From NCBI GenBank assembly GCA_964415355.1, contig CAYPYS010000006.1, positions 752 through 64,751 on the forward strand: a stretch of DNA of 64,000 nt. Direction: 5' to 3'. This document shows positions 1-28,585 of the stretch, piece after piece. Both the position numbers and the translations under genes were made by a program. The DNA is from an uncultured Planctomycetia bacterium. GTDB lineage: Bacteria > Omnitrophota > Gorgyraeia > Gorgyraeales > Gorgyraeaceae. Positions within the stretch are counted from its first letter, which is position 1; every line of letters begins with the position of its first letter. A model generated the notes under the pieces. The model ran no database searches. It worked only from the letters and a program-made list of their open reading frames with translations, and had not been told where the DNA came from.

Positions 1-776
1 CAAGGAATCGCAGAGTAAGATGGTATTCTGCAGAGCGTATCATGTCTGAGATAGAGATGCTGGTAAAAGAATTTGGAGTAAGAGAGATTTCTTTTTTCGA
101 TGATAATATGCTAGCTAACAAAAAACTTTTATCGCAGCTGTGCGAGCGCCTGATTGACGCTAGGCTGGACTTGACATGGAATTGTTACGGTAGCGCTAAT
201 TACGCGGACGAGAAGTTGTTTCGGTTAATGAGAAAGGCTGGGTGCTGGCAGATCTCGTGGGGAGTAGAACATGGAAGACAAGAAATATTAGATGTTTATA
301 GTAAGGGAATAAGGATCAGCAAAATGACTAATGCCCTTAGAGAGGCCAAGAGATCTGGTTTGCGAAACCGGGCATTTATGATGCATGGCAATTTTTTAGA
401 GACAAAAGAAACCGTAGAGGACAATATAAAATATCTTAATTCTTTACCCGTAGAAGATTTTCATGCTACATTTTTTACGCCGCTTCCTGGTACGATAGCG
501 TATGATGAAGTTGAAAAATACGGAAAATGGCTTAAGGATCCAGAAATATGGGAGAATTATGCCTGTTATACTACGTCGATATTCCTTCCGCGGGATATGG
601 AAGAAAAAGAGCTTGTCGAATCATTCAGCAGGATATACAGAAAATTTTATTTTAGACCGAGGGTCTTTTTGTATTTTGCTTTGAAGATGTTGCGTAATCC
701 CAATACGATGGCTCATATAACCAAGACAGCATTTCGTTTCATAAAGGTTTTTGGAAAGAAAAAGGCCAAACAATAA
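1..776 (+). CDS. B12-binding radical SAM protein, C-terminal part (5' end truncated by window edge)
   Basis: ORF is open to position 1. Its C-terminal FYFRPR motif is paralogous to the next two genes and to 27095..28585, whose intact sequences carry the CxxxCxxC radical SAM motif. Confidence 0.55.
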   Translation, partial: RNRRVRWYSAERIMSEIEMLVKEFGVREISFFDDNMLANKKLLSQLCERLIDARLDLTWNCYGSANYADEKLFRLMRKAGCWQISWGVEHGRQEILDVYSKGIRISKMTNALREAKRSGLRNRAFMMHGNFLETKETVEDNIKYLNSLPVEDFHATFFTPLPGTIAYDEVEKYGKWLKDPEIWENYACYTTSIFLPRDMEEKELVESFSRIYRKFYFRPRVFLYFALKMLRNPNTMAHITKTAFRFIKVFGKKKAKQ

Positions 777-777
777 T

Positions 778-2208
778 ATGAAAAAAATATCCAGGATTTT
801 ATTGATCAATCCGCCTCAGATCTCAGATGGAAAATTCCTTGACGGTTATCAAGGTACCAGGCCTGTGCTTCCACCGCTAGGGCTTGCTTATATAGCCTCG
901 TATCTAGAAAGACAAGGTTATAAGGTGGATATGTTTGATGGCATGGTAGAGTCGGCTTCTCCGCAAGAGATAGCCACTAGGACGCTTTCCTATGATATGG
1001 TAGGTATTACCTCTATAACATTTCAGGTAATTTTGACTTATAGAGTGCTTGAAGAGATAAGACGGCAGAATCCAACTATCCCTATTGTCGTAGGGGGTCC
1101 TCATGTTTCGTCTTTGCCTCTCGAGCCGATTGAAAAAGGGCTGGCGGATTTTGTAGTTATCGGAGAAGGCGAGATAGCGATGTCCCAGATAATAAAGGCG
1201 TATGAAAGCGGGGGAGATTTCTTCGCTATCCCGGGAGTAGCCTTTAAAAGAGATGGCAAGATTCATGTGCCTGATGACTCAGGCTTGGTCGATGATATAG
1301 ATTCTTTGCCTTTTCCTGCAAGGCACTTGCTTCCAATGGAAAGATATCGTACGAGTGCAGTGCGCACCAGGCGATTTCCTGCCATGTCAATGATAACCTC
1401 GCGTGGATGTCCCATGAAATGCACCTTTTGTTTTAACAATAAGCCTTATCGCAGGCGCGTAAGATTTGTCTCGGCACCTAAAATGATAGATGAGATGATG
1501 CAGCTTATAGATAAATACGGAGCGAAAGAAATACATTTTTGGGATGATAATTTTCTTATGAACAAGAATCGCATAAATGAATTTTTAAAAATTATGGAAT
1601 CACGCAAGTTATATATTCCCTTTGATTGCGAGGGTATAATAAATGCCTTTGATCCTGAAATATTGATGAGATTGAAAAAGGTAGGCTGTTACAGCGTTTC
1701 TTATGGCATAGAGTCTGGCAATCAAAGGATCCTTGATTTGATGGGGAAGCACACGACTATAAAGGAGATAAGAAGGGTAGTAAAAGAGACCAAGGCGCTG
1801 GGTCTTGATGTGAGAGGATATTTTTTATTTGGGCTTCCCACGGAGACAAGAGAAGAAATCCTCGATACTATAAGGTTTGCCAGATCGCTTAAGCTTACTG
1901 ATGCTACATTTTCTTTACTCATACCTTTGCCTGGAACCGAGATTTACGAAATGGTTAAGGACGAGTCGCAGTTTATGAAAGATTATTGGGATAAGCTTTT
2001 GCTTTCTGAGATAAGTTTTCCAAAGTCCCCTTTGGTATATTGTCCTGATGGAATAAAAGAGGAAGAGCTTTTGCATCTGCATCGATTGGCGTTCAAAAGT
2101 TTTTATTTCCAACCGCGCCAGTTATTAAATAAGATGTTCAGGTGTTTTAAGAGTTACGAAGTTTTTAAAGAGTCGCTTAAAGGGTTAAAATCTTTAGTTA
2201 AAGGATAG
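778..2208 (+). CDS. B12-binding domain / radical SAM protein
   Basis: N-terminal Rossmann-like B12-binding region (ILLINPP...LGLAYIASYL), CPMKCTFC = Cx3Cx2C radical SAM motif; ATG at 778 immediately after upstream stop. Confidence 0.7.
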   Translation: MKKISRILLINPPQISDGKFLDGYQGTRPVLPPLGLAYIASYLERQGYKVDMFDGMVESASPQEIATRTLSYDMVGITSITFQVILTYRVLEEIRRQNPTIPIVVGGPHVSSLPLEPIEKGLADFVVIGEGEIAMSQIIKAYESGGDFFAIPGVAFKRDGKIHVPDDSGLVDDIDSLPFPARHLLPMERYRTSAVRTRRFPAMSMITSRGCPMKCTFCFNNKPYRRRVRFVSAPKMIDEMMQLIDKYGAKEIHFWDDNFLMNKNRINEFLKIMESRKLYIPFDCEGIINAFDPEILMRLKKVGCYSVSYGIESGNQRILDLMGKHTTIKEIRRVVKETKALGLDVRGYFLFGLPTETREEILDTIRFARSLKLTDATFSLLIPLPGTEIYEMVKDESQFMKDYWDKLLLSEISFPKSPLVYCPDGIKEEELLHLHRLAFKSFYFQPRQLLNKMFRCFKSYEVFKESLKGLKSLVKG

Positions 2209-2227
2209 ATAGGTGGTATCAAGAATT

Positions 2228-3580
2228 ATGAGAGTAGCTATTATCAGACCTAGATATTATACGCATCTTGTCACGCCTCCTCTTGGTATGGGTTATGTCT
2301 GCGCTTATCTCAAACAAGCGGGTATAAAGGCAAGTATTATAGACGGCCTCAAAGAGGGGTTGGATAATGAGCAGCTTTTAAGGCGTTGCGAAGATGCGGA
2401 TATAGTAGCTATATTCTGCATGAGCGATTATATCTGGGATGTTATTGACATTAGTAAGAGATTAAAGGGTGCAGGGAAGACAGTCGTGATAGGTGGGCCT
2501 CATGCTACCATAATGCCTAAGGAGACTCTGGGACATACTGACGCAGACTATGCGATTGTTGGTGAAGGAGAAAAGAGCATGTTGGAGCTTGTGCATGCTA
2601 TAAGCAACAAGAAAGACCCTTCGACTATCCAAGGTATTTACTCGAAGGCAACGACAAGATTTTTACCCAGGGAGTTTTTTAATAACCTAGATGAAATACC
2701 TTTTCCTGCGTGGGAGGAGATTGACCCCAGGAGTTATCCGCCAGCTCCGCATGGTGCCGTAGTAAAAGCCTTCCCTGTTGCACCTATTACGTCTTCTCGC
2801 GGATGTCCTTTTTCATGTCATTTTTGCGCCAGCCCTAAGATATGGAAGCGTCAGATAAGGTATCGTTCTGCAAAGAATGTAGTGGATGAAATAGAATTAC
2901 TTGTAAAAAAATATCAGGTAAAAGAGATTCATTTTGAAGATGACAATCTTACCTTAAAGAGATCTCATGTTGAGGGCATATGTGAAGAGATTTTAAAGAG
3001 AAGGCTTAAGGTGTATTGGGCTACACCAAACGGTATACGCGTCGATGCGGTTTCAGAGGAACTTTTAAAGTTAATGAAGAGGAGCGGATGTTACAGTGTG
3101 GCCTTTGGCATAGAATCTGGTTCACAGAAAATACTAGACAATATAGATAAAAAGACAGACTTGAAGATGATGAATTCGGCCATACGAATGGCTCATAGAA
3201 CTGGTCTAATAACACAGGCCTTTATTATTTTTGGCCTTCCCGGAGAAACGCGAAAGACCATAGAAGACACAATAAAAATGGTTATGTCTTTGCCTCTGCA
3301 TAAGTCGCAATTTTTGCTCTTGGATCTCTTGCCCGGGTCTGTTCTATGGGATAGGTTTGGAAATGGCGATATAGAACTGTTCAAAAAAAGGAGTTATCAA
3401 GAGCCTGGATTTATACCTGAAGGCCTTACAGCGGATTATCTTATTAAGGCAAGGACCCAGGCATTCAGAAGGTTTCATTTAAGGCCAAGACAGTTTTGCA
3501 TGATCCTTAGAATGTTAAAGATGAAACAAATTGGGTATATTATGCAAAGGATGAAGGATTTTTATATATTCGGAAAATAA
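2228..3580 (+). CDS. B12-binding domain / radical SAM protein (paralog)
   Basis: VAIIRPRYY...PPLGMGYVCAYL B12-like N-terminus; CPFSCHFC Cx3Cx2C; C-terminal FHLRPRQ motif shared with neighbours. Confidence 0.7.
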   Translation: MRVAIIRPRYYTHLVTPPLGMGYVCAYLKQAGIKASIIDGLKEGLDNEQLLRRCEDADIVAIFCMSDYIWDVIDISKRLKGAGKTVVIGGPHATIMPKETLGHTDADYAIVGEGEKSMLELVHAISNKKDPSTIQGIYSKATTRFLPREFFNNLDEIPFPAWEEIDPRSYPPAPHGAVVKAFPVAPITSSRGCPFSCHFCASPKIWKRQIRYRSAKNVVDEIELLVKKYQVKEIHFEDDNLTLKRSHVEGICEEILKRRLKVYWATPNGIRVDAVSEELLKLMKRSGCYSVAFGIESGSQKILDNIDKKTDLKMMNSAIRMAHRTGLITQAFIIFGLPGETRKTIEDTIKMVMSLPLHKSQFLLLDLLPGSVLWDRFGNGDIELFKKRSYQEPGFIPEGLTADYLIKARTQAFRRFHLRPRQFCMILRMLKMKQIGYIMQRMKDFYIFGK

Positions 3581-3587
3581 CAAGGCC

Positions 3588-3628
3588 CTTAAGTTTACAT
3601 TTCAACGTTGTTGAAATGTAAACTTAAG
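3588..3628. repeat. 41-bp palindromic element (19-bp stem, GTT loop), copy 1
   Basis: cttaagtttacatttcaacgttgttgaaatgtaaacttaag read directly; perfect inverted repeat. Confidence 0.95.
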
Positions 3629-3641
3629 AAGATGAATTACG

Positions 3642-4844
3642 ATGAAGATAGCTTTAGTTGTAGATTGGCATTCGGAAAAGATGGGGTATTCTGATAATTT
3701 TTTACCTAAGGCCTTGGCTTCTTTGGGGCATGAGGTTCATCTGATAAGCTCTAATGGCCAGGTGTATTTTACCTCGTCTATTTACAAGGATGTCTTTGAA
3801 CCTTTTTTAGGGCCTCCGATCGTGGATTGCGGTGTGGAGGAACGCGATGGCTATACATTGCATCGTTTACCGCATGCTACTTTTAGAGGAAAAATGCGGA
3901 TAAAGGGCCTTGCGAAGAAATTACGCACGCTGCGACCAGATATAGTGCAAGCTGGCGAATTTACCTGTCTAACAACTTATGAGGCAGCATTTTTAAAGAA
4001 GATGCTAGGATATAAGTTTTTTGTAGAATGTCACGTGCACGCATCTGTTTTTCCTCCAGCTAATGGAATAGCAAGCGCAAAAGAGCGTTTTTATTGGAAT
4101 ATGTACGCCGCCACTATTGGCAAGATGGTAAACCATATGTCTGAGAGATGTTATCCCATAAGCACTGATGCTGCCGACATATTAGCTAAATTTTTTGGAA
4201 TTCAAAAAAATAAGATTGCTATAAGATCTTTAGGGGTAGATACGGATTTATTTAAACCTGTTTCTGATGAGGTTTCTAGGCAGAGACGTAGCAAGATTAG
4301 GAAAGAGCTTGGTTTTTCGGATTCGGATATTGTATGCGTATATACCGGGCGTTTCGAGTCATGCAAGAATCCTTTGTGTCTTGCGCATGCAATAAAAAAG
4401 CTTGCGGCTATAGGGGAGCCTTTTCGGGGTTTATTTATAGGATGTGGTAGCGAGGTTAACAGAGATAAGATATCGGATTCTTCATGCTGTATTACGCATC
4501 CTTTTGTTCCAGTGAAAGAATTACCCAAATTTTATCAGGCTGGCGATATAGCTGTTTGGCCTAAGCAAGAATCAACTAGCCAACTTGACGCAGCAGCATG
4601 TGGCTTACCCCTAATACTTAGCGATAAAGTAAAAGTAAAAGAACGCATAGAGGGCAATGGACTGACTTACAGGGAGGACGACATTGAGGATATGATTCGC
4701 CAATTGCTTGTTCTTCGTGATCCTGTATTACGTCAGAAAATGGGTGCTTGCGGTGCTGATAAAATGCGTAGGTCGTTTAGCTGGCATAACATTGCCAAAG
4801 AATACGCGACTGATTACGAAGATGCCTTGAGGAAAACAGGATGA
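3642..4844 (+). CDS. glycosyltransferase, GT4/GT1-like
   Basis: GT-B C-terminal region (GDIAVWPKQESTSQLDAAACGLPLILSD); weak N-terminal similarity. Confidence 0.5.
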   Translation: MKIALVVDWHSEKMGYSDNFLPKALASLGHEVHLISSNGQVYFTSSIYKDVFEPFLGPPIVDCGVEERDGYTLHRLPHATFRGKMRIKGLAKKLRTLRPDIVQAGEFTCLTTYEAAFLKKMLGYKFFVECHVHASVFPPANGIASAKERFYWNMYAATIGKMVNHMSERCYPISTDAADILAKFFGIQKNKIAIRSLGVDTDLFKPVSDEVSRQRRSKIRKELGFSDSDIVCVYTGRFESCKNPLCLAHAIKKLAAIGEPFRGLFIGCGSEVNRDKISDSSCCITHPFVPVKELPKFYQAGDIAVWPKQESTSQLDAAACGLPLILSDKVKVKERIEGNGLTYREDDIEDMIRQLLVLRDPVLRQKMGACGADKMRRSFSWHNIAKEYATDYEDALRKTG

Positions 4845-5929
4845 AAAAGAAGATTGTTATAGCAGGAGGGGCACGGCCGAATTTTATAAAAATAGTCCCG
4901 CTTATAAGAGAATTTAAAAGATATAAGAAGCATTTTGATGTTTTATTCGTGCACACCGGACAACATTATGATTTTACTATGTCAGAAATATTTTTTCAGG
5001 ACCTATGTATTCCTAAACCTGATGTTTTTTTGAACGCGGGATCTTCGTCTCATGCTATTCAGACGGCCAAGATTATGATGGGCTTCGAGAGGGTTCTTAT
5101 AAAAGAGAAACCTGATCTAATAGTCGTTGTCGGAGACGTTAATTCTACATTGGCGTGTTCTTTGGTTGCGTCAAAATTAAACATCAAGATAGCTCATGTA
5201 GAATCAGGGTTGAGGAGTTTTGATAAAACAATGCCCGAGGAGATCAATCGCATAGTTACAGATAGTCTCTCGGACTATTTATTCGTAACTGAAAAAAGCG
5301 GGATGGAAAATTTAAAGAAAGAAGGAATCGATAAAAAAAAGATATTTTTTGTAGGCAATGTAATGATAGATACATTACTGTTGAACATGCGCAAGATAGA
5401 CAAATCCGATATCCTTAAACAGTTTTCTTTAAGGCCTGATTCTTATGGCGTTTTGACTCTTCATAGACCCAGTAATGTTGACACAGAGGATTCATTTCTT
5501 GAGATATACGCTATTTTAAAATCTCTTTTAGGCAAAATAAGGATAATTTATCCTGTCCATCCACGTTCCATGCGAATGATGAGATCGTACGGTATTTTAG
5601 GCAAGTTCAAAAAGCTAAATAACCTTTGCATGACGAAGCCACTTGGTTACGTCGATTTTATTAAGTTGATAAAAAAATCCAGTTTTGTCCTTACTGATTC
5701 AGGAGGGATACAAGAAGAGGCTGCTTTTATGAGGACTTCCTGTCTTACGTTAAGGGAAAATACAGAACGGCCCGCTACTTTAAAAGGCACAAATTATTTA
5801 GTAGGTAGAAATAAAGATAAGATACTCAGACACGTGAAAAATATATTGAACGGCAAAATAAAAGATGGCAAAATCCCCGAATTATGGGATGGCAAGGCAG
5901 CACGCAGAATAGCCAAGATTCTAATATGA
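4841..5929 (+). CDS. wecB: UDP-N-acetylglucosamine 2-epimerase (non-hydrolysing)
   Basis: ARPNFIKIVPL...HTGQHYD...KPDLIVVVGDVNSTLA...AHVESGLRSFD motifs typical of WecB/MnaA. Confidence 0.8.
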   Translation: MKKKIVIAGGARPNFIKIVPLIREFKRYKKHFDVLFVHTGQHYDFTMSEIFFQDLCIPKPDVFLNAGSSSHAIQTAKIMMGFERVLIKEKPDLIVVVGDVNSTLACSLVASKLNIKIAHVESGLRSFDKTMPEEINRIVTDSLSDYLFVTEKSGMENLKKEGIDKKKIFFVGNVMIDTLLLNMRKIDKSDILKQFSLRPDSYGVLTLHRPSNVDTEDSFLEIYAILKSLLGKIRIIYPVHPRSMRMMRSYGILGKFKKLNNLCMTKPLGYVDFIKLIKKSSFVLTDSGGIQEEAAFMRTSCLTLRENTERPATLKGTNYLVGRNKDKILRHVKNILNGKIKDGKIPELWDGKAARRIAKILI

Positions 5930-6954
5930 TAGACACAGAAAAGACATTTCTAGAGATGACTAGTTCTTATGAAAATAGCAGATCAAAGGATATGACTTCC
6001 AAATATTGGACAGAGCTAAACAGGAAAAATATAGATCAATTGCAAAGAGAAGGATATTGCAATTTTAAACAAACCGTAGGTAAAAATTATTTTATATGGG
6101 CGACAAGAATACGAGACCCTAAGATTAGATACTTGATGAATAATCTGCCGCTTTCATGCGTGTCGTCGGCTTTTGCTAAGGCGCTTTTTTCAAAAAGACA
6201 TATATATTTTAGTTTAAAAGGTACAATCGTCTATAATTTTCTCAGTCTTTTGCTATGGGAATACACGATAAGAAAAATATCTTTTAACATGGTAGATTCC
6301 ATCGAAGAACCGCTGGAGGGTAACCCTCCTTGTGTCAGAGTAGGTCGTAGGATGATTTCCCAGGACTTGGCTTATTCCGTATTGGAGCTTAATGAAATGA
6401 TAAAAGGAGGCGTAGATTTTAATAGCATAAATACGGTAATGGAGTTAGGCGCAGGGTATGGCAGGACAGCGTATGTTTTTCTTAAGGCATTCCCGCATTT
6501 GAAATATATAGTAGCGGATATTCCCCCAGCGCTTTACATTTCCCAGAGGTACTTATCAGGTCAATTCCCGCATAGAAAGATATTTGAATTCAAAAATTTT
6601 AAAGATTATTCAGAAATCGCGGATGAGTTTGAAGAATCGCAGATAGCTTTTGTGTTACCGTCACAGTTGGAATTGTTGCCAACTAAGACAGTAGACATGT
6701 TTTTGGCTATAGATTCACTTCATGAAATGCTGCCAAAACATATAGAGTATTATTTTAATAATATAGATAGACTTACAAAAAAGTTTTTCTATTTTAAATG
6801 CTGGAAGATAACAGAGATGCTCTACGATGATATCGTGCTTAAGGAAACAGACTATCCTGTACGCGAGAACTGGTACAGGGTGTTTTGGAACGAATGCGAT
6901 GTGCTTACTTCATATTTTGAAGCGCTTTTCAGGATTGATAATGGAGGGAATTAA
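5926..6954 (+). CDS. putative SAM-dependent (sugar) methyltransferase-like protein
   Basis: LELGAGYGRTAYVF GxGxG-like motif; ATG at 5926 overlaps wecB stop (ATGA). Confidence 0.35.
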   Translation: MIDTEKTFLEMTSSYENSRSKDMTSKYWTELNRKNIDQLQREGYCNFKQTVGKNYFIWATRIRDPKIRYLMNNLPLSCVSSAFAKALFSKRHIYFSLKGTIVYNFLSLLLWEYTIRKISFNMVDSIEEPLEGNPPCVRVGRRMISQDLAYSVLELNEMIKGGVDFNSINTVMELGAGYGRTAYVFLKAFPHLKYIVADIPPALYISQRYLSGQFPHRKIFEFKNFKDYSEIADEFEESQIAFVLPSQLELLPTKTVDMFLAIDSLHEMLPKHIEYYFNNIDRLTKKFFYFKCWKITEMLYDDIVLKETDYPVRENWYRVFWNECDVLTSYFEALFRIDNGGN

Positions 6955-8171
6955 TGAAAGAATGCTTGGTTTGTAGAACGCTTATAGAGCCTTTTATGTC
7001 TTTCGGAAAGATGCCTATTGCGAACGGATTCTTGAAGAAAGACCAGTTTGGCGAGGAATACTTTTTTGAACTAAAGGTTGCTTCTTGTCCTGAGTGCGGC
7101 ATGTTTCAGCTTATAGAGCAACCTGACCGCACTAAAATGTTTAACGAAAACTACGCCTTTTTTTCAGGGACATCAAAAAATATGGCTGTTCATTTCCAGG
7201 AGTTTGCAAAACATCTGAAGGGCGATTATCTCTCTTCTAAAGATCCTTTTGTGGTAGAGGTAGGCAGTAATGATGGTATTATGCTGAAGAATTTTGTTGA
7301 TTCAGGAATACGTCACTTAGGGATTGAGCCGTCTGCTAATGTGGCCAAAGCAGCAACGGATAAAGGTATAAATACGATATGTAAGTTTTTTGACGAAGAA
7401 TGTGCCAAGGAGATCGTAGCTAAGCATGGTCAGGCAGATGCCTTTCTTGGTGCAAATGTCATGTGCCATATCCCCTATCTCCATTCTGTGATCAAAGGAG
7501 CCAAGATACTTATTAAGCCAAAAGGCGTGATGATATTTGAAGATCCTTATCTGGGAGATGTCATTGAGAAAACGACGTATGACCAGATTTACGATGAGCA
7601 CGTTTTTTTGTTTTCCGTTTCCTCTATTAAGAATCTTTTTGCGCGACATGATATGGAGCTGATAGACATAGAGCCACAAGAGACACATGGAGGATCGATG
7701 CGCTATATAATAGCGAACAAAGGAAAAAGGCCTGTGTCTGCTAGAGTCAATAGACAGCTGGAAGAAGAAAAGGCTTTGGGCTTGGATAGGGCAGAGACAT
7801 ATGATATGTTTCGCAAAAATTGTGAACGCTATCGCAATGAGCTTATGGGTCTTCTGCGTGACATAAAGAAAAAAGGAAAAAGGATCGTAGGCTATGCGGC
7901 TACATCAAAAAGCACTACTATAATGAATTATTGTGGTATCACTGAGGACCATATAGAGTTTATAAGCGATACTACGCCTTTGAAGCAGGGTAAATTCAGC
8001 CCGGGTGTCCATATACCCGTGCGACCATATGAAGATTTTAAGGCAGATTACCCGGATTATGCGCTTCTGTTTGCTTATAATCACGCTAAAGAGATTATGG
8101 CAAAAGAAAAGGATTTTATGGTCTCAGGCGGGAAGTGGATTACATATGTGCCAAAGGTGCAGATATTATAG
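6954..8171 (+). CDS. NDP-hexose C-methyltransferase-like protein (zinc ribbon + class I MTase + C-terminal domain; TylC3-type architecture)
   Basis: N-terminal CxxC...CxxC (CLVCRT...CPECG), central MTase fold (VVEVGSNDGIML), C-terminal extension; architecture recalled from the Methyltransf_13/14 family. Confidence 0.5.
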   Translation: MKECLVCRTLIEPFMSFGKMPIANGFLKKDQFGEEYFFELKVASCPECGMFQLIEQPDRTKMFNENYAFFSGTSKNMAVHFQEFAKHLKGDYLSSKDPFVVEVGSNDGIMLKNFVDSGIRHLGIEPSANVAKAATDKGINTICKFFDEECAKEIVAKHGQADAFLGANVMCHIPYLHSVIKGAKILIKPKGVMIFEDPYLGDVIEKTTYDQIYDEHVFLFSVSSIKNLFARHDMELIDIEPQETHGGSMRYIIANKGKRPVSARVNRQLEEEKALGLDRAETYDMFRKNCERYRNELMGLLRDIKKKGKRIVGYAATSKSTTIMNYCGITEDHIEFISDTTPLKQGKFSPGVHIPVRPYEDFKADYPDYALLFAYNHAKEIMAKEKDFMVSGGKWITYVPKVQIL

Positions 8172-8185
8172 ATTAAATGACAGTG

Positions 8186-8226
8186 CTTAAGTTTACATTT
8201 CAACAACGTTGAAATGTAAACTTAAG
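8186..8226. repeat. 41-bp palindromic element, copy 2 (opposite orientation, AAC loop)
   Basis: cttaagtttacatttcaacaacgttgaaatgtaaacttaag. Confidence 0.95.
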
Positions 8227-8249
8227 CGAGTTGGGAGGGATTTTAGCTG

Positions 8250-8696: not shown

Positions 8697-8700
8697 ATCT

Positions 8701-17697: not shown

Positions 17698-17708
17698 CAA
17701 GAGTATAT

Positions 17709-18641: not shown

Positions 18642-18677
18642 GTTTACATTTTAACGTTGTTGAAATGTAAACTTAAG
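18637..18677. repeat. 41-bp palindromic element, copy 6 (C>T variant)
   Basis: tttaagtttacattttaacgttgttgaaatgtaaacttaag. Confidence 0.9.
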
Positions 18678-18691
18678 GGGATATAGGGAAT

Positions 18692-20602: not shown

Positions 20603-20603
20603 T

Positions 20604-20644
20604 CTTAAGTTTACATTTTAACGTTGTTGAAATGTAAACTTAAA
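20604..20644. repeat. 41-bp palindromic element, copy 7
   Basis: cttaagtttacattttaacgttgttgaaatgtaaacttaa. Confidence 0.9.
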
Positions 20645-20653
20645 AGGGGAGTT

Positions 20654-21346: not shown

Positions 21347-21366
21347 AAGGATATAGAGTGTAAGTT

Positions 21367-22785
21367 ATGCTATTCAATTCTTTACAATTTGCCGGATTCT
21401 TCATTATAGTCTATTGCCTTTATTTAGCTATGAATCATAAATGGCAAAACAGAATGCTTCTTATAGCTAGTTTTATTTTTTATGGCGCATGGGATTGGAG
21501 ATTTCTATTTTTAATGTTCGTTACTATAATCACGGACTATTTCTGTGCACTCAAGATAGACGAATCAAAAGAAGATAAAACAAAAAAAAGATTTTTGTTT
21601 TTAGGGATATTCGTAAACCTGCTTATATTGAGTTTCTTTAAATATTTCAATTTCTTTGCCACGAGTCTCCAGGGGTTATTCGGCTATTTTGGTTTTTCTG
21701 CCAACCCGAAACTTCTCAATATAATACTTCCTGTCGGTATATCTTTTTATACATTTCAGGCGTTGAGCTATATCATAGATGTCTATAGAGGAGATATAAG
21801 ACCTACAAAGAGTCTTAGAGATTGCGCGCTTTTTATTTCTTATTTTCCACAGCTTGTAGCCGGGCCTATCATGAGGGCAAAAGACCTTCTTCCTCAGGTC
21901 ATTAGGCCGAGAAAATTATCACTCGAGAAATTTTATGAAGGATGCTACCTTATTTTCTGGGGCCTTTTTCTGAAGATCTTCGTTGCAGATAATCTGGCAA
22001 CTATAGTAAATCCAGTGTTTGCATCTCAGGGGCCTTACAATGCAGCGAGAGTGCTTATAGCGTTATATGCATTTGCATTTCAGATATACTGTGATTTTGC
22101 AGGGTATTCCAATATAGCCAGGGGCCTTGGTAAGTGCATGGGGTTTGATATTATGGTTAACTTTAATCTACCGTATTTTGCTACTAACCCCAGTGATTTT
22201 TGGAAAAGGTGGCACATAAGCTTATCAACTTGGCTTAGGGATTACTTGTATATACCTTTAGGAGGCAACAGGGTATCTGGATTTATTACTTATAGGAATC
22301 TGGCAATAACTATGCTCTTGGGTGGCCTTTGGCATGGAGCTGCATGGACATTTGTTATCTGGGGGGCTTATCATGGCTTGTTGCTTATCATACATAGATC
22401 GCTTAAACCAGTACTTGCAAAACTCCCTGTCCCCAGGAATCCCGTTTTGGAAAGGGCATGGTTTTTTCTGCGCGTTATTTTCTTTTTTCACTTTACCTGC
22501 CTGGGTTGGTTGATCTTCAGGGCTGAATCTGCAGGGCAGATATTTAGTATGCTCGGTAGCTTTGTTTCTGGTTTTAATCTTGGTTCGAATATGGGTCTTT
22601 TTAGCCTAGTCCGATTGATCTGGTTACTGACATTAGTACAATTTATCCAGTTTATAAGGAGGGATAAGATGGTTATATATAGATCAGGGGTAATAGTTAA
22701 AGCAGCATTTTATATAGTCTGTTTTTATTCTATGATAATATTTGGAGTAAATAGTGGAAAAGAATTTATCTACTTTCAATTTTAA
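21367..22785 (+). CDS. MBOAT-family membrane O-acyltransferase (AlgI/DltB-like)
   Basis: polytopic; FYTFQALSYIIDVYRG; WHISLSTWLRDYLYIPLGGNR; conserved His. Confidence 0.8.
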   Translation: MLFNSLQFAGFFIIVYCLYLAMNHKWQNRMLLIASFIFYGAWDWRFLFLMFVTIITDYFCALKIDESKEDKTKKRFLFLGIFVNLLILSFFKYFNFFATSLQGLFGYFGFSANPKLLNIILPVGISFYTFQALSYIIDVYRGDIRPTKSLRDCALFISYFPQLVAGPIMRAKDLLPQVIRPRKLSLEKFYEGCYLIFWGLFLKIFVADNLATIVNPVFASQGPYNAARVLIALYAFAFQIYCDFAGYSNIARGLGKCMGFDIMVNFNLPYFATNPSDFWKRWHISLSTWLRDYLYIPLGGNRVSGFITYRNLAITMLLGGLWHGAAWTFVIWGAYHGLLLIIHRSLKPVLAKLPVPRNPVLERAWFFLRVIFFFHFTCLGWLIFRAESAGQIFSMLGSFVSGFNLGSNMGLFSLVRLIWLLTLVQFIQFIRRDKMVIYRSGVIVKAAFYIVCFYSMIIFGVNSGKEFIYFQF

Positions 22786-23929
22786 GAGATTGCCAGGCGC
22801 ATTTCTTATTGCACTTTCGATTATAGTTATTGTTTATTTTGTCGAGATCTTTATATTGCCAATTAACTTTTTTACTTTTAGAACCTGGGAGGCCTTAATG
22901 GTAAAAGGCCTTCTTCCCGGAGAATTTTATCCTAATATGAAGATATCGATGATTGAAACAGGAGACTTGGGACATCATACTAAATTTGCTGTAGAGAAAG
23001 AAGTAGAGTGGGAGACTGATCGTTATGGATATAGGAAACACGATATAGGAACAATTAGACATCGAATAGTAATTCTTGGAGATTCTGCTGTAGCAGGAAC
23101 AGCGCTTACTCAAGAAGACATGCTTTCAGAGGTTTTGGAGCGAAGACTAAAGGTTAGCGTCTATCCCTTTACTCCTTCTAGGTATCCCCTAGTAGATAGT
23201 TTTTTAAATGAAAAGCGTTTTATTGATAATCCTCCAGATGTAGTCATTCTAGAGAGGATTGAAAAAAAGATACCGGAGTTGTCCGTTTTCAAACTGGATT
23301 TTGAGGCAGGGCACAGATATTCCTGGCTAGAGCGAGGCTGGAAAGATTTTCTAGGCAAACATCAAGATCTTGCAGTATTACTCGACAGGATCTACAAAAA
23401 TAATATGGGTAATTATTTTAAGAGCAGACTCGAAATTATGATCCAGCACCCTGTACAACTGGTTATCAAGCCGAGCCAGAGACATGATTCACCTAGTGCT
23501 GTACGTGGTACAGCAGATAATGGCATGCTCTTTTTGAAAGAGACGGTTGACAGTATGGCTACTGGAATAGATATCTTACCCGAAGACATAGATAGGATCG
23601 CAGAAACCATAGATTCTTATGACAAAGCGTTTAGAAAAATGGGTATTAATTTTGTTTTCATGCCTGTGCCGAACAAGGAGAGTGTTTATTACGAAGAGTT
23701 ACCTATCGAAGATAACAAAAAGCCGAGATTTCTCAAAGACTTGGTCTTGAAATTACGACACAGAGGAGTAGAGGTAATCGATGTGCAGCAGGCTCTTGAG
23801 GAAGCATCTCGAAAAAATAATATCTTGCTTTATCATACAGATGACACGCACTGGAATGCAGAAGGCATAAAGATAGTAGCTGATTTAATCGAGCAAAGGT
23901 TGTACCATATGGGATTTGACTCAAAATGA
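22754..23929 (+). CDS. membrane-anchored SGNH/AlgJ-AlgX-like O-acetylation partner protein
   Basis: single N-terminal TM helix; C-terminal HTDDTHWN motif as in AlgJ/AlgX-type proteins; position immediately after MBOAT. Confidence 0.45.
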   Translation: MEKNLSTFNFKRLPGAFLIALSIIVIVYFVEIFILPINFFTFRTWEALMVKGLLPGEFYPNMKISMIETGDLGHHTKFAVEKEVEWETDRYGYRKHDIGTIRHRIVILGDSAVAGTALTQEDMLSEVLERRLKVSVYPFTPSRYPLVDSFLNEKRFIDNPPDVVILERIEKKIPELSVFKLDFEAGHRYSWLERGWKDFLGKHQDLAVLLDRIYKNNMGNYFKSRLEIMIQHPVQLVIKPSQRHDSPSAVRGTADNGMLFLKETVDSMATGIDILPEDIDRIAETIDSYDKAFRKMGINFVFMPVPNKESVYYEELPIEDNKKPRFLKDLVLKLRHRGVEVIDVQQALEEASRKNNILLYHTDDTHWNAEGIKIVADLIEQRLYHMGFDSK

Positions 23930-25605
23930 CAAGAAGGGAGCACCTGGTGAACAAAAGGACATTTTTGATATGCTTTTTTATTGTGTTGATATTGGCCTCT
24001 TTTCTGAGATTTACCGGACTAAGAGATAGAGGTATATTTTTATGCGACGAAGGCGATTATCTTGCAGGGGGTCGCACGGTCGTAGCTGCACTTGATTTTG
24101 CTTTTAAAAGAATATTCAGTTCAGGAGAAACAGGTATTTCTTTTTCTGAATACCTATCTGAACATGGAGGAGGTTATGCCTCGGCAGTAAAACCTGGATA
24201 TTATCTTCTGGTCGCAATATCTTTTTTGGTAGGAGGCGTACATGATTATTCGGTTCTTTATCTTTCGGCTATATTGGGACTTTTGACTATATTGGTGACG
24301 TCTCTTATAGGGGGGCTTTTGTATAATAGGCGCGTTGCGCTTTATGCTGCTATACTTTTAAGCTTTTCGGTGTACCATATAAATTATTCCCGTTCGACTT
24401 TTTCTGTAGCTGCTGTCGCGTTTTTCCTGTATTTGGGCGTGTATTTCATATTGAAATACTTCAAGGATCTTAAGGCTTCGCATAAAGATAATCCTGTGAG
24501 TTTGATATTAGGCGGGTTTGCTCTGGGTTATTCGTTTTCGTGTCATTATAATTTGTTAGCAACTATAGGCATTATGTTTTTGATCTGCGGATTCTTTTTA
24601 TTTAAATATTCAAAATTAGGTCGCTTAAAACATCTTATCGTATCATTTATTACCCCTCTTGTTTTGCTGGAAATACCTTATTGGGCAGTGAAATATCTGA
24701 CTAGAGGGATGACTGGGGTCACGACAGGCAAGCCATATGCCATAAAGAGTTATTTTGAGCAACTCACTTTTATTTTCAATAAAACGTTTTTTTATACCAA
24801 TAGACCTCAGGCCCCGTTTTTTTCTTATACTGATTTATTGCTTAAGACAGAAGGCGCAGTGGTTGTTTTATTATTTTTGGTAAGTTGTATTTTTATTATT
24901 AAGCGGGATTGGTTTAGAAGAGAAACGGCAGGAGCAGTTTTTTTATTTACCATGGGCCCCCTTATGTTTGTCTTTTTTTCCATGCTTGGCGAAAAAGCAC
25001 CGCGTACCATATTATCTGTTATACCGGCTTTTTGTGTAATAGCGGCGTTATTCCTGGCCGATTTTGAAAAAAGAGTCATTAAGATATTTAAAAACAGATA
25101 TATTGGTTATGGGCTTTTGGTTTTGCCTGTATGGCTTTGTATTATTTTTAGCCAGTTTTTCAATTCCCTCGATTATATAAAATTCAGGTCTCCTTATGTA
25201 AAGGCAATAGAGTTCATAAAAAGACAAGGTGATTATAAACATTTTTCAACCAGTCCGCCTGTTTCAGTGTTTTATGCTGGACTTAAGAATGCAAGTCCTT
25301 ATTGGGATATGAAACTGGAAGAGGCAAAGAGATTATATAGTAAAGAGGGCTATAGGTTTCTTATATTAGAGGTAGGGGAAGAAGGGCAGAGATATAGACA
25401 TGAGCTAGTAGATGTAGTTCTTAGGTCTGGCGTAAGGCCTGCGTTTGAAATTTTCTATAATCCTTTGCCGCTTGCACTGGAAGATCTTTTTTTCTATACA
25501 TATAAAAAAGGAGAGCCGGTTATTATTTATCATAGATACGAGAAAGATAAGCCCGGAGTTTATCCGAGTGTAAGAGTGATAGACCTTAAAGATATATTCG
25601 GATAG
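23926..25605 (+). CDS. GT-C-fold membrane glycosyltransferase (ArnT/PMT-like)
   Basis: about 12 TM helices; DEGDY acidic motif in first loop (CDEGDYLAGG) typical of GT39/GT83. Confidence 0.45.
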   Translation: MTRREHLVNKRTFLICFFIVLILASFLRFTGLRDRGIFLCDEGDYLAGGRTVVAALDFAFKRIFSSGETGISFSEYLSEHGGGYASAVKPGYYLLVAISFLVGGVHDYSVLYLSAILGLLTILVTSLIGGLLYNRRVALYAAILLSFSVYHINYSRSTFSVAAVAFFLYLGVYFILKYFKDLKASHKDNPVSLILGGFALGYSFSCHYNLLATIGIMFLICGFFLFKYSKLGRLKHLIVSFITPLVLLEIPYWAVKYLTRGMTGVTTGKPYAIKSYFEQLTFIFNKTFFYTNRPQAPFFSYTDLLLKTEGAVVVLLFLVSCIFIIKRDWFRRETAGAVFLFTMGPLMFVFFSMLGEKAPRTILSVIPAFCVIAALFLADFEKRVIKIFKNRYIGYGLLVLPVWLCIIFSQFFNSLDYIKFRSPYVKAIEFIKRQGDYKHFSTSPPVSVFYAGLKNASPYWDMKLEEAKRLYSKEGYRFLILEVGEEGQRYRHELVDVVLRSGVRPAFEIFYNPLPLALEDLFFYTYKKGEPVIIYHRYEKDKPGVYPSVRVIDLKDIFG

Positions 25606-25613
25606 GAGTTTTT

Positions 25614-26309
25614 ATGCATGATTATGACGAGTCTTGGAGTCAATGGCTAGATTGCGAAAAATACGGACCTACGTTGCGTCATCAAAGAAGAAATATAGAA
25701 TTTCTTTTAAAGGATCTTGATTATAAGTCTATCTTGGATGTAGGTAGCGGTAGCGGCGATAATCTGTATCATATGCTGAATGCTAAGAAGGTCGAAGACG
25801 TATGTCTTATAGATGTTTCTTCCAAGGCTTTGGCTAGAGCAAGGACATTGGTACCTGGAGCCAGGCTTGTCCAGCTGGATATACAGAAAGAGAGCGTTGA
25901 TCGTAGGTTTGATATGGTTCTTTGTTGTGATGTATTGGAGCATATACCTAATGATGCAGCTGCATTAAAGAATATAAGAAATATGTCAGATAAATACTTT
26001 GTGCTTTCCACCCTTTCTGGAAAAATGCGCGAATCAGAAAAGCATGTTGGACATGTAAGAAATTACACGTTGGATGGTCTTTTGAGTAAATTAAAAGAAG
26101 CTCGCTTTAAGCCAGTGAAGGTGATAAGGTGGGGATTTCCTTTTTATTCGCCGTTATATCGCAATCTCTGGAATAGATTGCCTCAAGAAATAAATTATGG
26201 AAAATTTGGCTGGTTCAGAAGAGTATGCGCGCAGATGTTATATCTTTTATTTATATTGAATTCTAGGACAAAAGGAGACTACCTTTTTATTTTATGCGAA
26301 TCAGTCTAA
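25614..26309 (+). CDS. class I SAM-dependent methyltransferase
   Basis: ILDVGSGSGDN; VLCCDVLEHI. Confidence 0.65.
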   Translation: MHDYDESWSQWLDCEKYGPTLRHQRRNIEFLLKDLDYKSILDVGSGSGDNLYHMLNAKKVEDVCLIDVSSKALARARTLVPGARLVQLDIQKESVDRRFDMVLCCDVLEHIPNDAAALKNIRNMSDKYFVLSTLSGKMRESEKHVGHVRNYTLDGLLSKLKEARFKPVKVIRWGFPFYSPLYRNLWNRLPQEINYGKFGWFRRVCAQMLYLLFILNSRTKGDYLFILCESV

Positions 26310-26350
26310 GATAAGTTTACATTTTAACGTTGTTGAAATGTAAACTTAAG
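26310..26350. repeat. 41-bp palindromic element, copy 8
   Basis: gataagtttacattttaacgttgttgaaatgtaaacttaag. Confidence 0.9.
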
Positions 26351-26378
26351 CGAAAGAGGGATAGCAATAGGAGATGAT

Positions 26379-27074
26379 ATGAAACAAAGATGGCAGAAGA
26401 TGACGGATGGTCTCATTGGAAAAAGGGAATATTTTTTGATAGATACTACGATCTATAGTTTTTACAAGGAGATCACGCGTTATATAGATAAATACGTGAA
26501 AGGCGATGTCCTGGATGCAGGGGCAGGCAGGCTTGCTTTTAAGTATTTGTTAACAGGAAAAGCAAAGAGATATTATGCCATGGATAAATATATTGCCAGG
26601 CAGGGACTGGACATAGTAGGTGACTTGAACTCAAGCCCTTTTAAGAAGCATGCATTCGATACTATAACATGCCTTCAAGTGATAGAGCATGCTAAAGATC
26701 CGGTAAGTATTATAGAGAATCTGGCGGATTCATTGAAAGACAATGGCGTGCTTATAATTTCAGCACCGCATGTCTCATATTTACATAGCGAACCAGAGGA
26801 TTATTATAGATACACGAAGTATGGATTGCATCATATTGCTGAAAAAAACGGGCTTGAGGTACTGGGGATCAGCGTAGCAGGAAGCATATTCGGTTTTTTG
26901 TTTACTCCTATATCGGATTTTTTGCTCTCATATACATATAAGGTGCCGGTAATATTTAATTTAGTATTTTTTGTGAATAGCCTTTTTGTGCGCTCTATAT
27001 GTAAGCTGGACGAGTGGTTTTTTAGAAATTGCATCATGCCGACTAATTATATCATGGTGGCGAGAAAAAAATAA
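26379..27074 (+). CDS. class I SAM-dependent methyltransferase
   Basis: VLDAGAGRLAFKYL; ITCLQVIEHAKDP. Confidence 0.65.
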   Translation: MKQRWQKMTDGLIGKREYFLIDTTIYSFYKEITRYIDKYVKGDVLDAGAGRLAFKYLLTGKAKRYYAMDKYIARQGLDIVGDLNSSPFKKHAFDTITCLQVIEHAKDPVSIIENLADSLKDNGVLIISAPHVSYLHSEPEDYYRYTKYGLHHIAEKNGLEVLGISVAGSIFGFLFTPISDFLLSYTYKVPVIFNLVFFVNSLFVRSICKLDEWFFRNCIMPTNYIMVARKK

Positions 27075-27094
27075 CCTTAAGAAATTATCGTAGG

Positions 27095-28585
27095 ATGAAG
27101 ATTACACTTTTTTGCATAGGTTCGAATTTTACATGTATAGGCCCCAGGAGGATATCTTCTTATTTGAGGTCGAAGGGAATAAAGGTCAAGATAGTTTTTG
27201 TCCAAACAGATCGTAATCTTAAGATTTTACTTGAAGGAGATTGCAAGAAAGATTTGCTGGGCATGGTAAAGGATGATATAGCTGTGGGCATGTCTTTTAC
27301 TTCTAATTACCTAAATGTTGCCGAGACCTTGACCGCGTTAATAAAAAAGCATATGCCTATCCCGGTAATTTGGGGCGGGGTGCATGCGACTGTTTCTCCG
27401 GAGGAGTCACTTAATGTTTGCGATGCTGTTTGTCTGGGAGAAGGAGAAGATCCGATCTTAGAATTTCTTGAGGGTGGAGCCGATATAAAGGGTAATAACC
27501 GGATAGATAATATATGGCTGAGATCGGGTGATCAGATAATAAAGAATAAACAGAGGCCGCTAAGAGTCAATCTCGATCGATTACCTTATCAGGATTACGA
27601 CATCGAAAATCACTTTATTTTAGAAAATCAGCGTCTAAGACATCTCCAGCGTAACGACCTGAAGAGAAATTACGGTTTTTCTCTTACGCGAATGATGACA
27701 TTCGGCTGTCCCTTCAGTTGCACGTATTGCGTAAACAGCAGATATAAATCATTGGATAAGGGAAATTCAAGAATAAGGTCCTATTCAGTGGACTATTTTA
27801 TAGGAGAGACAAAGGATATTTTAAATAGATTACCTTTTATTAGCTACTTACTGTTTGACGACGATGCCTTTTTAAGCTTATCCTCAAATGCCATTGAAGA
27901 ATTTTGCCAGAAATACAAAAGAGAGATAGGGCTACCGTTTGGCATAGGTGGCATAAAAGCCGAGATGGTAAAAAAAGAAAAACTTGCACCGTTAGTGGAG
28001 GCGGGGTTGATAACAGTAAGGATGGGAATTCAAACTGCTAGCGAGAAAACAAACAGGAATATTTTTCACAGGCAGTTCTCTAGAGAAGAAAACTTGAAGG
28101 CTGTTCAGACATTCAAATCGTTAGGAAAAAAGATAAGGCCTCCTTTTTATGATCTTATTTTGGATAATCCATGGGAAGATACTGATGATAAATTGGAGAC
28201 CCTAGATTTTTTTAGGTCGCTTCCGCTACCCTATTTTTTAAATGTTTTTTCTTTAACTTTTTTTCCCGGGACAGAGTTGTATAAAAGGGCATTGACAGAG
28301 AGACTGATAGGCAATTATGACCCCTATAGGCATTATCATGATTTCAAGAAGACATATTTAAATCTCATGATATTATTTTCGAGTCTTTTCAAGCTACCAG
28401 ACAGTTTATATAAAAGGCTCGCCAGATCAAAAAGAATAAGGAATCAAATTAAGGAGTACCCATTTTTTTATTATATCTACAAGACCTTTGATTTATTATT
28501 TCGTTTAATGTCATATTATACTAACCGTAGATTCATTGCTGTACATATGTGCAAGAGGAGGACGTCCTATGAAACGCAATCCTGA
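27095..28585 (+). CDS. B12-binding domain / radical SAM protein (fourth copy)
   Basis: CPFSCTYC Cx3Cx2C; N-terminal B12-like domain; 496 aa. Confidence 0.7.
   Translation: MKITLFCIGSNFTCIGPRRISSYLRSKGIKVKIVFVQTDRNLKILLEGDCKKDLLGMVKDDIAVGMSFTSNYLNVAETLTALIKKHMPIPVIWGGVHATVSPEESLNVCDAVCLGEGEDPILEFLEGGADIKGNNRIDNIWLRSGDQIIKNKQRPLRVNLDRLPYQDYDIENHFILENQRLRHLQRNDLKRNYGFSLTRMMTFGCPFSCTYCVNSRYKSLDKGNSRIRSYSVDYFIGETKDILNRLPFISYLLFDDDAFLSLSSNAIEEFCQKYKREIGLPFGIGGIKAEMVKKEKLAPLVEAGLITVRMGIQTASEKTNRNIFHRQFSREENLKAVQTFKSLGKKIRPPFYDLILDNPWEDTDDKLETLDFFRSLPLPYFLNVFSLTFFPGTELYKRALTERLIGNYDPYRHYHDFKKTYLNLMILFSSLFKLPDSLYKRLARSKRIRNQIKEYPFFYYIYKTFDLLFRLMSYYTNRRFIAVHMCKRRTSYETQS

Follow-up and report, generated by a model that had tools for sequence, protein, structure and literature searches.

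Five uncharacterised radical S-adenosylmethionine (SAM) enzymes with B12-binding domains, encoded in and directly upstream of a 64,000-nucleotide stretch of contig CAYPYS010000006.1 from an uncultured bacterium (hereafter the window), probably make sugar modifications that have so far gone undescribed. We favor this reading because their genes, here named rSAM0 to rSAM4, sit in gene arrangements that are conserved in other genomes. The superfamily is a known one, but the genomic setting, a surface-glycan locus of more than 55 kb that lies for the most part within the window, is undescribed, conserved and widespread, and it points to sugar chemistry that is not yet known. We consider it quite likely that the enzymes are glycan-tailoring radical SAM proteins of the class-B type. 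The best named matches of the GroEL protein encoded in the window (86-89% identical) all come from Candidatus Omnitrophota, which places the organism in that phylum.

A first-pass annotation of the window had counted four radical SAM (rSAM) genes with B12 domains, of which three are complete and the one at the left edge is present as a 3′ fragment only:

1-776, + strand: rSAM1, 3′ fragment (257 codons) of the gene for a 490-aa B12-binding-domain radical SAM protein
778-2208, + strand: rSAM2, B12-binding-domain radical SAM, 476 aa; PF02310 2.1e-22, PF04055 9.7e-27, motif CPMKCTFC
2213-3580, + strand: rSAM3, B12-binding-domain radical SAM, 455 aa; PF02310 7.5e-19, PF04055 1.1e-23, motif CPFSCHFC
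27095-28585, + strand: rSAM4, B12-binding-domain radical SAM, 496 aa; PF02310 3.2e-12, PF04055 2e-11, motif CPFSCTYC

The profile search that the annotation had proposed (PF02310 plus PF04055) returns both domains in rSAM2, rSAM3 and rSAM4 and confirms their Cx3Cx2C motifs. For rSAM1 neither the B12 domain nor the motif is visible within the window, where PF04055 is matched at 6.1e-12 over profile positions 22-165 only, the C-terminal part of the radical SAM core, but both are present in the full gene as carried by identical contigs. Two public contigs from marine water-column metagenomes are 100% identical to the window, L001 over positions 1-2950 (2950 bp) and L008 over positions 1-8707 (8707 bp), and the latter adds 9250 bp upstream. 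The full-length rSAM1 gene (L001:544-2016, which is L008:8554-10026) encodes 490 aa with PF02310 at 4.8e-21, PF04055 at 6.8e-21 and the motif CPMKCTFC. A count of four proved too low, since the same locus holds a fifth B12-type enzyme, rSAM0, and a sixth, SPASM-like radical SAM protein just upstream of the window. Across the five B12-type enzymes PF02310 is matched at E 3e-12 to 2e-22, always over the gathering score of 32.1 bits, and PF04055 at E 2e-11 to 1e-26, with Cx3Cx2C in every one.

On their identities (30-33% among rSAM1, rSAM2 and rSAM3, and 24-26% between rSAM4 and each of these) rSAM1 to rSAM4 are old paralogues. The gap from rSAM1 to rSAM2 is 1 nt and that from rSAM2 to rSAM3 is 4 nt. 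The ATG of rSAM2 at 778, the start called in databases, lies one base past the rSAM1 stop codon; an alternative TTG is found at 751, and the product read from it had no exact match in a database look-up. The C-terminal tails of all five enzymes are basic, aromatic-rich and amphipathic, which would suit work at a membrane surface, although we regard this as weak evidence.

The three tandem genes are indeed contiguous but are not a free-standing array: a larger conserved cassette, which begins about 6 kb upstream of the window and is truncated by it, has them at its 3′ end. Ahead of rSAM1, contig L008 encodes in 5′ to 3′ order:

L008, first gene upstream of the flavoenzyme: TM722, a polytopic membrane protein of 722 aa
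L008:3305-4750: flavoenzyme resembling UDP-galactopyranose mutase, 481 aa, which opens the cassette
L008, upstream of the window: rSAM0, fifth B12-type radical SAM, 505 aa, motif CPYNCTNC
L008:6310-7398: two small membrane proteins, sm173 and sm187 (173 and 187 aa)
L008, directly before rSAM1: SPASM-like radical SAM, 374 aa, with a DUF3463 tail, SPASM-like cysteines and the motif CNMRCRMC

The flavoenzyme is, as far as its sequence tells and at family level, a member of the UDP-galactopyranose mutase family. It aligns to the Trypanosoma cruzi enzyme 4dsg at E 9.3e-29 over residues 9-456 of 481 and to the Aspergillus mutase at E 1e-24, and the alignment keeps the flavin-loop GGH and the C-terminal GRxGxxRY..NxDHS. 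The bacterial model TIGR00031 gives 41.7 bits against a cut-off of 303.75, and PRK07208 gives 382.2 against 389. A phytoene-desaturase-like identity, which would have suggested a ladderane lipid cluster, was ruled out, as CrtI matches the Rossmann N-terminus only and the mutases match the whole protein. The two small proteins are paralogous (33% identity, E 5e-20) and share a conserved DRSxSA motif; visual inspection suggests some three hydrophobic, likely transmembrane, segments at the N terminus of each and a winged-helix-looking C-terminal domain. Neither matches a Pfam or NCBIfam family. No family match was found for TM722 either, and profile-profile comparison with PMT_2 glycosyltransferases of the GT-C fold gave a weak match with a probability of 19%. 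The SPASM-like gene overlaps rSAM1 by 19 nt.

Genes for the mutase-like enzyme, rSAM0, rSAM2, rSAM3, the small proteins and the SPASM-like protein recur in loci L010-L015, with identities of 42-77% over the cassette. In L016 the cassette lacks the small proteins, in L017 the first four genes are followed by the contig end, and gene order is partly permuted among L010-L017. Together with the window genome (L008), these loci represent seven distinct lineages, with L011, L012 and L014 counted once as the same population, and the small membrane proteins are kept in five of the seven. Besides Omnitrophota genomes, the carriers comprise one genome with the label Nitrospinota and one with the label Planctomycetales. 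Orthologues of rSAM2 in the cassette are 65-77% identical and those of rSAM3 68-72% (54% in L016 and L017), whereas an rSAM1 orthologue occurs in L010 only. Each paralogue thus has its own orthologues (65-77% identity), and therefore each probably performs a different step or acts on a different carbon. In L010 the cassette is followed by C-methyltransferase, RmlC and short-chain dehydrogenase/reductase (SDR) genes, as in the window. The flanks of L011-L013 hold three more B12-type rSAMs, a GDSL hydrolase, a PMT-type GT-C enzyme, a carbamoyltransferase and further SPASM rSAMs. As a separate observation, L011 and L012, which are JGI contigs with a 65% rSAM2 orthologue, pack ten radical SAM genes into 21 kb, six of B12 type and four others, two of which have SPASM domains.

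The fourth gene of the window, rSAM4, stands apart from this cassette and has partners of its own:

23926-27074, + strand: PMT_2 GT-C transferase and two class I methyltransferases, directly upstream of rSAM4
28569-29756, + strand: glycosyltransferase of family GT2, Dpm1/AglJ/GtrB type

As read from the sequence, this GT2 gene starts at an ATG that precedes the rSAM4 stop by 17 nt and has AGGAGG ahead of it, and the two genes are probably translationally coupled. The four top NCBIfam matches of the product, none of which reaches its cut-off, are AglJ (162 bits against 325), dolichyl-phosphate hexose transferase, PpgS and ArnC. All four families make polyprenyl-phosphate sugars, and going by these matches the protein is probably a polyprenyl-phosphate glycosyltransferase; PF26629 (GT2_TM_C) is present in the L096 orthologue. 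Orthologues of rSAM4 reach 80% identity, with others at 65% (Omnitrophica) and 53% (Fibrobacter). In L096, from a genome whose closest named relatives are Omnitrophota, the order around a 64% orthologue is that of the window, namely PMT_2, two methyltransferases, rSAM4, GT2 and GT4. The GT4 gene there is followed by an inserted GDSL-type hydrolase, one PMT_2 gene (two in the window), and then a GT2 and two B12-type rSAMs. These contexts were obtained from protein look-ups, as a metagenome scan with rSAM4 alone gave three weak loci.

A wider view came from a scan with one genome per species, which yielded 80 loci with relatives of rSAM2 at 28-71% identity; open reading frames (ORFs) were called in the loci and labelled by similarity to the window proteins. 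The loci derive from Omnitrophota, Patescibacteria, DPANN archaea, Planctomycetota, Elusimicrobiota, Spirochaetota and others, mostly uncultivated, and the cultured carriers among them are Magnetospirillum sp. LM-5 (L063) and Paramagnetospirillum caucaseum SO-1 (L078), with a distant homologue. A glycan-class gene lies directly beside a B12-type rSAM in 34 of 74 loci and within three genes of one in 44 of 74. Hence the presence of several rSAMs in a glycan locus, called unusual in the first-pass annotation, is so for studied organisms only, and the association is common in uncultivated phyla. With the cassette group excluded, 75 loci contain 31 adjacent pairs of a B12-type rSAM and a GT2, of which 28 run in one direction and 20 have the GT2 upstream, against 16.2±3.3 when gene order was shuffled within loci (maximum 30 in 5000 shuffles). 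The adjacency is therefore significant across phyla and, with the recurrence of the arrangements in other genomes, it supports a link of the rSAMs to glycan genes beyond chance co-location. The GT2 genes upstream of rSAMs mostly encode 230-250 aa. Of the co-directional neighbours, 66 had no other label; in these, the Pfam families seen most often are the GT-C types PMT_2 (8) and TMEM260-like (7), followed by GT1, methyltransferases, DegT aminotransferases and Wzx.

Two further metagenome contigs, L098 and L100, carry relatives 42-44% identical that are interleaved with NDP-heptose genes, comprising SIS (GmhA-type), GHMP-kinase (HddA-type), nucleotidyltransferase (HddC-type), HAD-phosphatase (GmhB-type) and transaldolase. 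They also encode a GT2, up to three PMT_2 proteins and a SPASM rSAM, with SDR genes after the rSAM. Other homologues show further combinations. In L045 (CP070770.1, the chromosome of Deltaproteobacteria bin23), ten B12-type rSAM ORFs are almost consecutive, with no recognisable glycan genes. Two rSAM2 homologues, P0114 and P0118 (697-704 aa), are fusions of a B12-type rSAM to a class I SAM methyltransferase domain, which suggests that radical and conventional methylation are functionally coupled in these proteins.

What the five enzymes do with cobalamin can be approached from their motifs and folds. In OxsB, TsrM and TokK the cobalamin-contact motifs are a GG motif, a GxSxL-like motif (AxSxYxW in TokK) and a GE sequence (PMC9204698). 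With positions matched by inspection, without structural superposition, GGPH or GG(I/V)H together with GEGE is found in all five rSAMs. The GxSxL-like motif reads GITSI in rSAM2, CMSDYIW in rSAM3, GMTAS in rSAM1, AITFT in rSAM0 and GMSFT in rSAM4, and that of rSAM3 resembles the AxSxYxW of TokK. Among 20 orthologues of rSAM2, its GITSI, GGPH and GEGE fall at invariant or near-invariant columns. It is thus likely, as far as these motifs can tell, that the five enzymes bind cobalamin, and the two domains with the contact motifs kept give them the class-B-type architecture that the first-pass annotation had proposed.

AlphaFold2 models of rSAM2 and rSAM4, both of high confidence (pLDDT 89.4 and 88.5), show strand-helix alternation at the N terminus. 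When they were compared with solved structures in Foldseek, class-B-type folds alone stood at the top of both lists: AprD4 first for rSAM2 (TM 0.72-0.77), then MgmA, TsrM, OxsB, TokK and CysS, and MgmA, TsrM, AprD4 and OxsB for rSAM4. By sequence profile, too, the nearest solved structure of rSAM2 is AprD4 (2.7e-36), and for rSAM3 it is MgmA/QCMT (9ccb, 9.6e-20). The alignment of rSAM2 with AprD4 is limited to the radical SAM core, and the N-terminal domain aligns instead to the cobalamin binders OxsB, TokK, CysS and QCMT. AprD4 does not bind cobalamin (PMC12931638).

No curated NCBIfam cut-off was reached by any of the five enzymes. The best scores against the models of characterised and related families were as follows:

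HpnJ (TIGR03471): 196.7 bits (rSAM2, nearly full-length), cut-off 577.6
Ladderane-associated (TIGR04072): 173.8 bits (rSAM3), cut-off 360
BchE (TIGR02026): 172.9 bits (rSAM3), cut-off 481.35
PhpK (TIGR04479): 139 bits, cut-off 600
QCMT (TIGR04014): 123 bits, cut-off 360
AprD4 (NF033070): 99.6 bits, cut-off 500
Uncharacterised B12_rSAM_oligo (TIGR04295): 92 bits, cut-off 400
HpnR (TIGR04367): 84 bits, cut-off 650
TsrM (TIGR04428): 75 bits, cut-off 500
KedN5-type (NF033712): 69.6 bits, cut-off 700

Membership of BchE, the identity that the first-pass annotation had itself put forward as an alternative, or of another characterised family is thus reached by none of the rSAMs, and where JGI homologues carry a BchE label, it was assigned automatically. 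More than 100 groups make up the class-B family of 83,589 members, and most of them, the largest included, are unexplored (PMC12931638).

Taken as a whole, the observations are best explained by radical tailoring of nucleotide- or polyprenyl-phosphate-linked sugars in the surface-glycan locus, a reading to which we give distinctly better than even chances. Each rSAM would cleave SAM reductively at a [4Fe-4S] cluster, and the resulting 5′-deoxyadenosyl radical would then remove a hydrogen atom from a sugar carbon that is not activated. The likeliest sequel would be delivery of a methyl group by methylcobalamin, which would yield a C-methyl, or branched, sugar. The simplest substrate for the cassette enzymes would be a nucleotide sugar in furanose form, supplied by the mutase-like enzyme; in the case of rSAM4 and the widespread GT2/rSAM pairs it would be a polyprenyl-phosphate sugar made by the adjacent GT2. 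Outside the membrane, GT-C enzymes may move the modified sugar onto the surface glycan, as in the Arn and Gtr systems.

Which chemistry the radical would serve is less settled than the setting. Methylation appears the most probable single outcome because C-methyltransferases are present in each sequence-similarity group that has any characterised member (2026 review, PMC12931638), although we would place C-methylation itself somewhat short of an even chance. The sugar modification by C-methylation envisaged in the first-pass annotation thus fares unevenly: the glycan setting favors modified sugars, but C-methylation draws no support from the closest fold of rSAM2, which is AprD4, or from the best family model of three of the five enzymes, which is HpnJ.

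These same matches argue for tailoring of sugars without methylation, by AprD4-like dehydration, HpnJ- or OxsB-like ring contraction or carbocycle formation, or epimerisation, with cobalamin serving as a redox or radical partner or going unused. We hold this to be possible, if the less probable course. AprD4 leads for rSAM2 both by profile and by fold, and among NCBIfam models HpnJ scores highest for rSAM1, rSAM2 and rSAM4. HpnJ is proposed to contract a lipid-linked glucosamine installed by the GT2 HpnI (PMC13459092), which mirrors the GT2/rSAM pairing. In addition, the cassette opens with an enzyme of the mutase family, whose known relatives catalyse ring contraction. The SDR genes that follow the rSAM in L098 and L100 recall AprD3, the partner of AprD4. 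However, the scores for AprD4 (99.6 against 500) and HpnJ (196.7 against 577.6) lie far under the cut-offs, the N-terminal domain aligns to cobalamin binders rather than to AprD4, the cobalamin-contact motifs are retained, and most characterised class-B members are methylases (PMC12931638).

Alternatively, the cassette might modify a lipid, such as the polyprenol carrier, a ladderane- or hopanoid-like lipid or a lipid A acyl chain, which we consider unlikely. Partial matches to TIGR04072 (rSAM3), HpnJ and HpnR point this way, as do the amphipathic tails described above and the DUF3463 domain of the SPASM-like rSAM, which also occurs in HpnH. Moreover, ladderane-type clusters have been reported in Omnitrophota genomes from the Cariaco Basin (PMC9902471), and the characterised lipid-modifying enzymes GrsA/B and Gmm are B12-domain rSAMs (PMC13459092). 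Nevertheless, the 64-kb window contains no gene for acyl carrier protein (ACP), FabF, FabZ, squalene-hopene cyclase or another lipid enzyme, and none is found in the 9 kb upstream, where TM722, sm173 and sm187 match no family. The hopanoid context in particular (squalene-hopene cyclase, HpnG, HpnI and HpnK) is absent from the window and the upstream sequence. Further, the flavoenzyme is mutase-like and not phytoene-desaturase-like, the family scores are all below cut-off, and sugar enzymes are the neighbours in the various phyla. Both a lipid and a peptide are less likely substrates than a sugar. Maturation of a peptide or protein in the manner of ribosomally made peptides that are modified after translation (RiPPs), in which the B12-type rSAMs would C-methylate and the SPASM rSAM cross-link a substrate such as the small membrane proteins, is very improbable, as the partial matches to the RiPP families ApyD (161.8 bits) and TIGR03975 (108 bits) are far under their cut-offs (750 and 282), the two small conserved proteins adjoining the SPASM-like rSAM (173-187 aa, with about three hydrophobic segments and a winged-helix-like domain) are unlike leader-core precursors, no protease or exporter is present, and the mutase-like enzyme and glycan neighbours would be left unexplained.

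Several points weigh against radical tailoring of sugars as we propose it, or against its methylating version. The substrate and reaction of the rSAMs are taken from context only, because no NCBIfam cut-off is reached. With AprD4 as the closest fold of rSAM2, architecture alone is no proof of cobalamin use, and AprD4, the closest solved structure, dehydrates a sugar diol. No structural feature separates methylating from non-methylating members of the class (PMC12931638). The locus already encodes a conventional C-methyltransferase of the TylCIII type, so a branched sugar could arise without the rSAMs. Since the conserved cassette has no GT2, the idea of a polyprenyl-phosphate sugar rests on rSAM4 and the distant homologues. 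Finally, some relatives lie outside glycan contexts, namely homologues in Leptospirales and Spirochaetota and rSAM4 homologues of 47-53% identity (L097 and L099).

The glycan setting itself, as described in the first-pass annotation, holds: some 19 glycosyltransferase genes (GT4/GT1-type, GT2 and three PMT_2-type GT-C) surround the rSAMs, along with seven class I methyltransferases, a UDP-GlcNAc 2-epimerase, RmlC- and RmlD-like and SDR enzymes and an AsnB-type amidotransferase. Positions 3642-47701 form one glycan locus, in which the following features accompany the rSAM4 block:

3642-11681, + strand: sugar-nucleotide block of GT4, UDP-GlcNAc 2-epimerase, NanM-type O-methyltransferase, RmlC-like and three SDR genes (Pfam/NCBIfam)
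6954-8171, + strand: TylCIII-type sugar C-methyltransferase (PF08421/PF08484)
11678-23929, + strand: GT2-methyltransferase fusion, three GT4, one GT2, methyltransferase and AsnB-type amidotransferase
11678-13651, + strand: GT2-class I methyltransferase fusion
within 11678-23929, + strand: O-acylation pair of MBOAT and AlgX-like proteins
20624-21346, + strand: small Dpm1/AglJ-like GT2
29731-47701, + strand: rest of the locus, with GT4 genes, RmlD, GT2, three methyltransferases, SDR and a final GT4
30860-33542, + strand: two further PMT_2 GT-C genes
38420-40258, + strand: GT4-DUF218 fusion
44856-46637, + strand: WecA/MraY-type initiating phosphoglycosyl transferase (PF00953)

The small GT2 at 20624-21346 is 41-48% identical to GT2s directly upstream of B12-type rSAMs in a dozen loci, mostly of Patescibacteria. 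The initiating transferase is fused to a CoA_binding_3 region that recalls the N terminus of WcaJ/WbaP, and the catalytic domain of WcaJ is missing. For two ORFs, 43424-43858 (144 aa) and 56984-57661 (225 aa), Pfam and NCBIfam gave no match. The + strand carries every long ORF of the window, and the GC skew is positive across 1-64000 (0.10-0.37), which is consistent with one long co-directional leading-strand stretch. A scan for promoters and terminators gave sites no more numerous than in shuffled sequence and was uninformative on operon limits. Downstream of groES-groEL, an operon at 59977-63852 encodes a MoxR AAA ATPase, a DUF58 protein and a TgpA_N-like membrane protein.

Genes for cobalamin acquisition follow the glycan locus:

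47729-48253, + strand: ATP:corrinoid adenosyltransferase BtuR/CobO (PF02572, 2.3e-49), directly after the last glycosyltransferase, ahead of and outside riboswitch control
48350-48524, + strand: cobalamin riboswitch aptamer (Rfam RF00174, 88.7 bits against a gathering score of 31.5), directly upstream of btuF
48565-48589: terminator-like hairpin with a T tract
48607-56918, + strand: import and nucleotide-loop salvage operon, with BtuF, BtuC, BtuD, CobC, CobU, CobT, CobS, a PF01902 protein and a TonB-dependent receptor

Their place on the same strand (47729-56918, 19 kb after rSAM4) is as first noted, but the operon is a separately controlled unit because it has its own riboswitch and terminator-like hairpin; co-regulation with the glycan locus is not indicated, and functional coupling of the two was set aside on these grounds. 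The genes show that the organism imports and completes corrinoids and that cobalamin is available, and nothing more. The PF01902 gene (diphthamide-synthase-like ATP pyrophosphatase) lies at 54349-55056, between cobS and the receptor gene.

Known systems resemble parts of this arrangement. The class B C-methyltransferases of antibiotic pathways, GenK, GenD1/GntE, MoeK5 and Fms7 (PMC12931638), have the same two-domain architecture; they act on sugars with unactivated carbons and are likewise set among glycosyltransferases and sugar-nucleotide enzymes. Those, however, belong to secondary-metabolite clusters, whereas here the locus is for a cell-surface glycan, with up to five paralogues and no family-level match. 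AprD4 (apramycin 1,2-diol dehydratase, 6FD2) resembles rSAM2 most closely in fold and core sequence, has a similar size and domain order and acts on a sugar, as proposed for rSAM2, but it works without cobalamin and its N-terminal domain is not aligned to the rSAM2-family profile. By analogy, the hopanoid branch HpnI-HpnK-HpnJ is the nearest known counterpart of the GT2/rSAM pair, in that a GT2 adds a sugar to a membrane lipid and a B12-domain rSAM remodels it (PMC13459092). Nevertheless, the window rSAMs score about one third of the HpnJ cut-off, and the window GT2s are Dpm1/AglJ-like and not HpnI.

The proposed ladderane clusters, with a TIGR04072 rSAM, a phytoene-desaturase-like enzyme and FabF/FabZ/ACP, also place several B12-type rSAMs beside an FAD enzyme of the amine-oxidase fold. 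In our case the flavoenzyme is mutase-like, fatty-acid synthesis genes are absent and TIGR04072 is matched at 173.8 bits against 360. The Arn and Gtr systems combine a GT2 that makes a polyprenyl-phosphate sugar, tailoring or flipping steps and a GT-C transferase. At rSAM4 and the distant homologues, similarly, a small Dpm1/ArnC/GtrB-like GT2 and a PMT_2 GT-C occur with a tailoring enzyme between them, which here would be a B12-type rSAM and not a deformylase; no flippase was identified. Loci like that of the window may lie behind some ladderane calls made by genome mining, such as those for Omnitrophota of the Cariaco Basin (PMC9902471).

That the modification would be new accords with the literature searched in full text, in which we found no paper assigning a class-B rSAM to the synthesis of O-antigen, capsule or another surface polysaccharide, and none on an Arn- or Gtr-like system with such an enzyme. 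The words sugar, glycan and polysaccharide are absent from the 2026 review (PMC12931638). A radical SAM gene associated with the HS:19 capsule of Campylobacter jejuni was considered as a precedent and rejected, as the report on it never mentions cobalamin (PMC8743553).

A more specific proposal can be offered tentatively: class-B rSAMs may act on polyprenyl-phosphate-linked or furanose nucleotide sugars, giving products that are C-alkylated, deoxygenated or ring-contracted (carbocyclic) and that GT-C enzymes place on the cell surface. If so, such sugars would be a substrate class not yet described for class-B rSAMs. The triad of GT2, B12-type rSAM and GT-C and the cassette of a mutase with four rSAMs would then define a widespread and undescribed glycan-tailoring system, carried by Omnitrophota, Patescibacteria, DPANN archaea and other mostly uncultivated lineages. 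The loci offer a concrete setting for unexplored class-B space, with conserved cassettes, defined partners and two culturable carriers of the Magnetospirillum group. Radical tailoring would also account for the ability of anaerobes to build branched or rearranged surface sugars in the absence of oxygen, and it would provide new reactions for glycan chemistry. Moreover, it would tie the availability of vitamin B12 to the cell envelope of very small, often host-dependent microbes.

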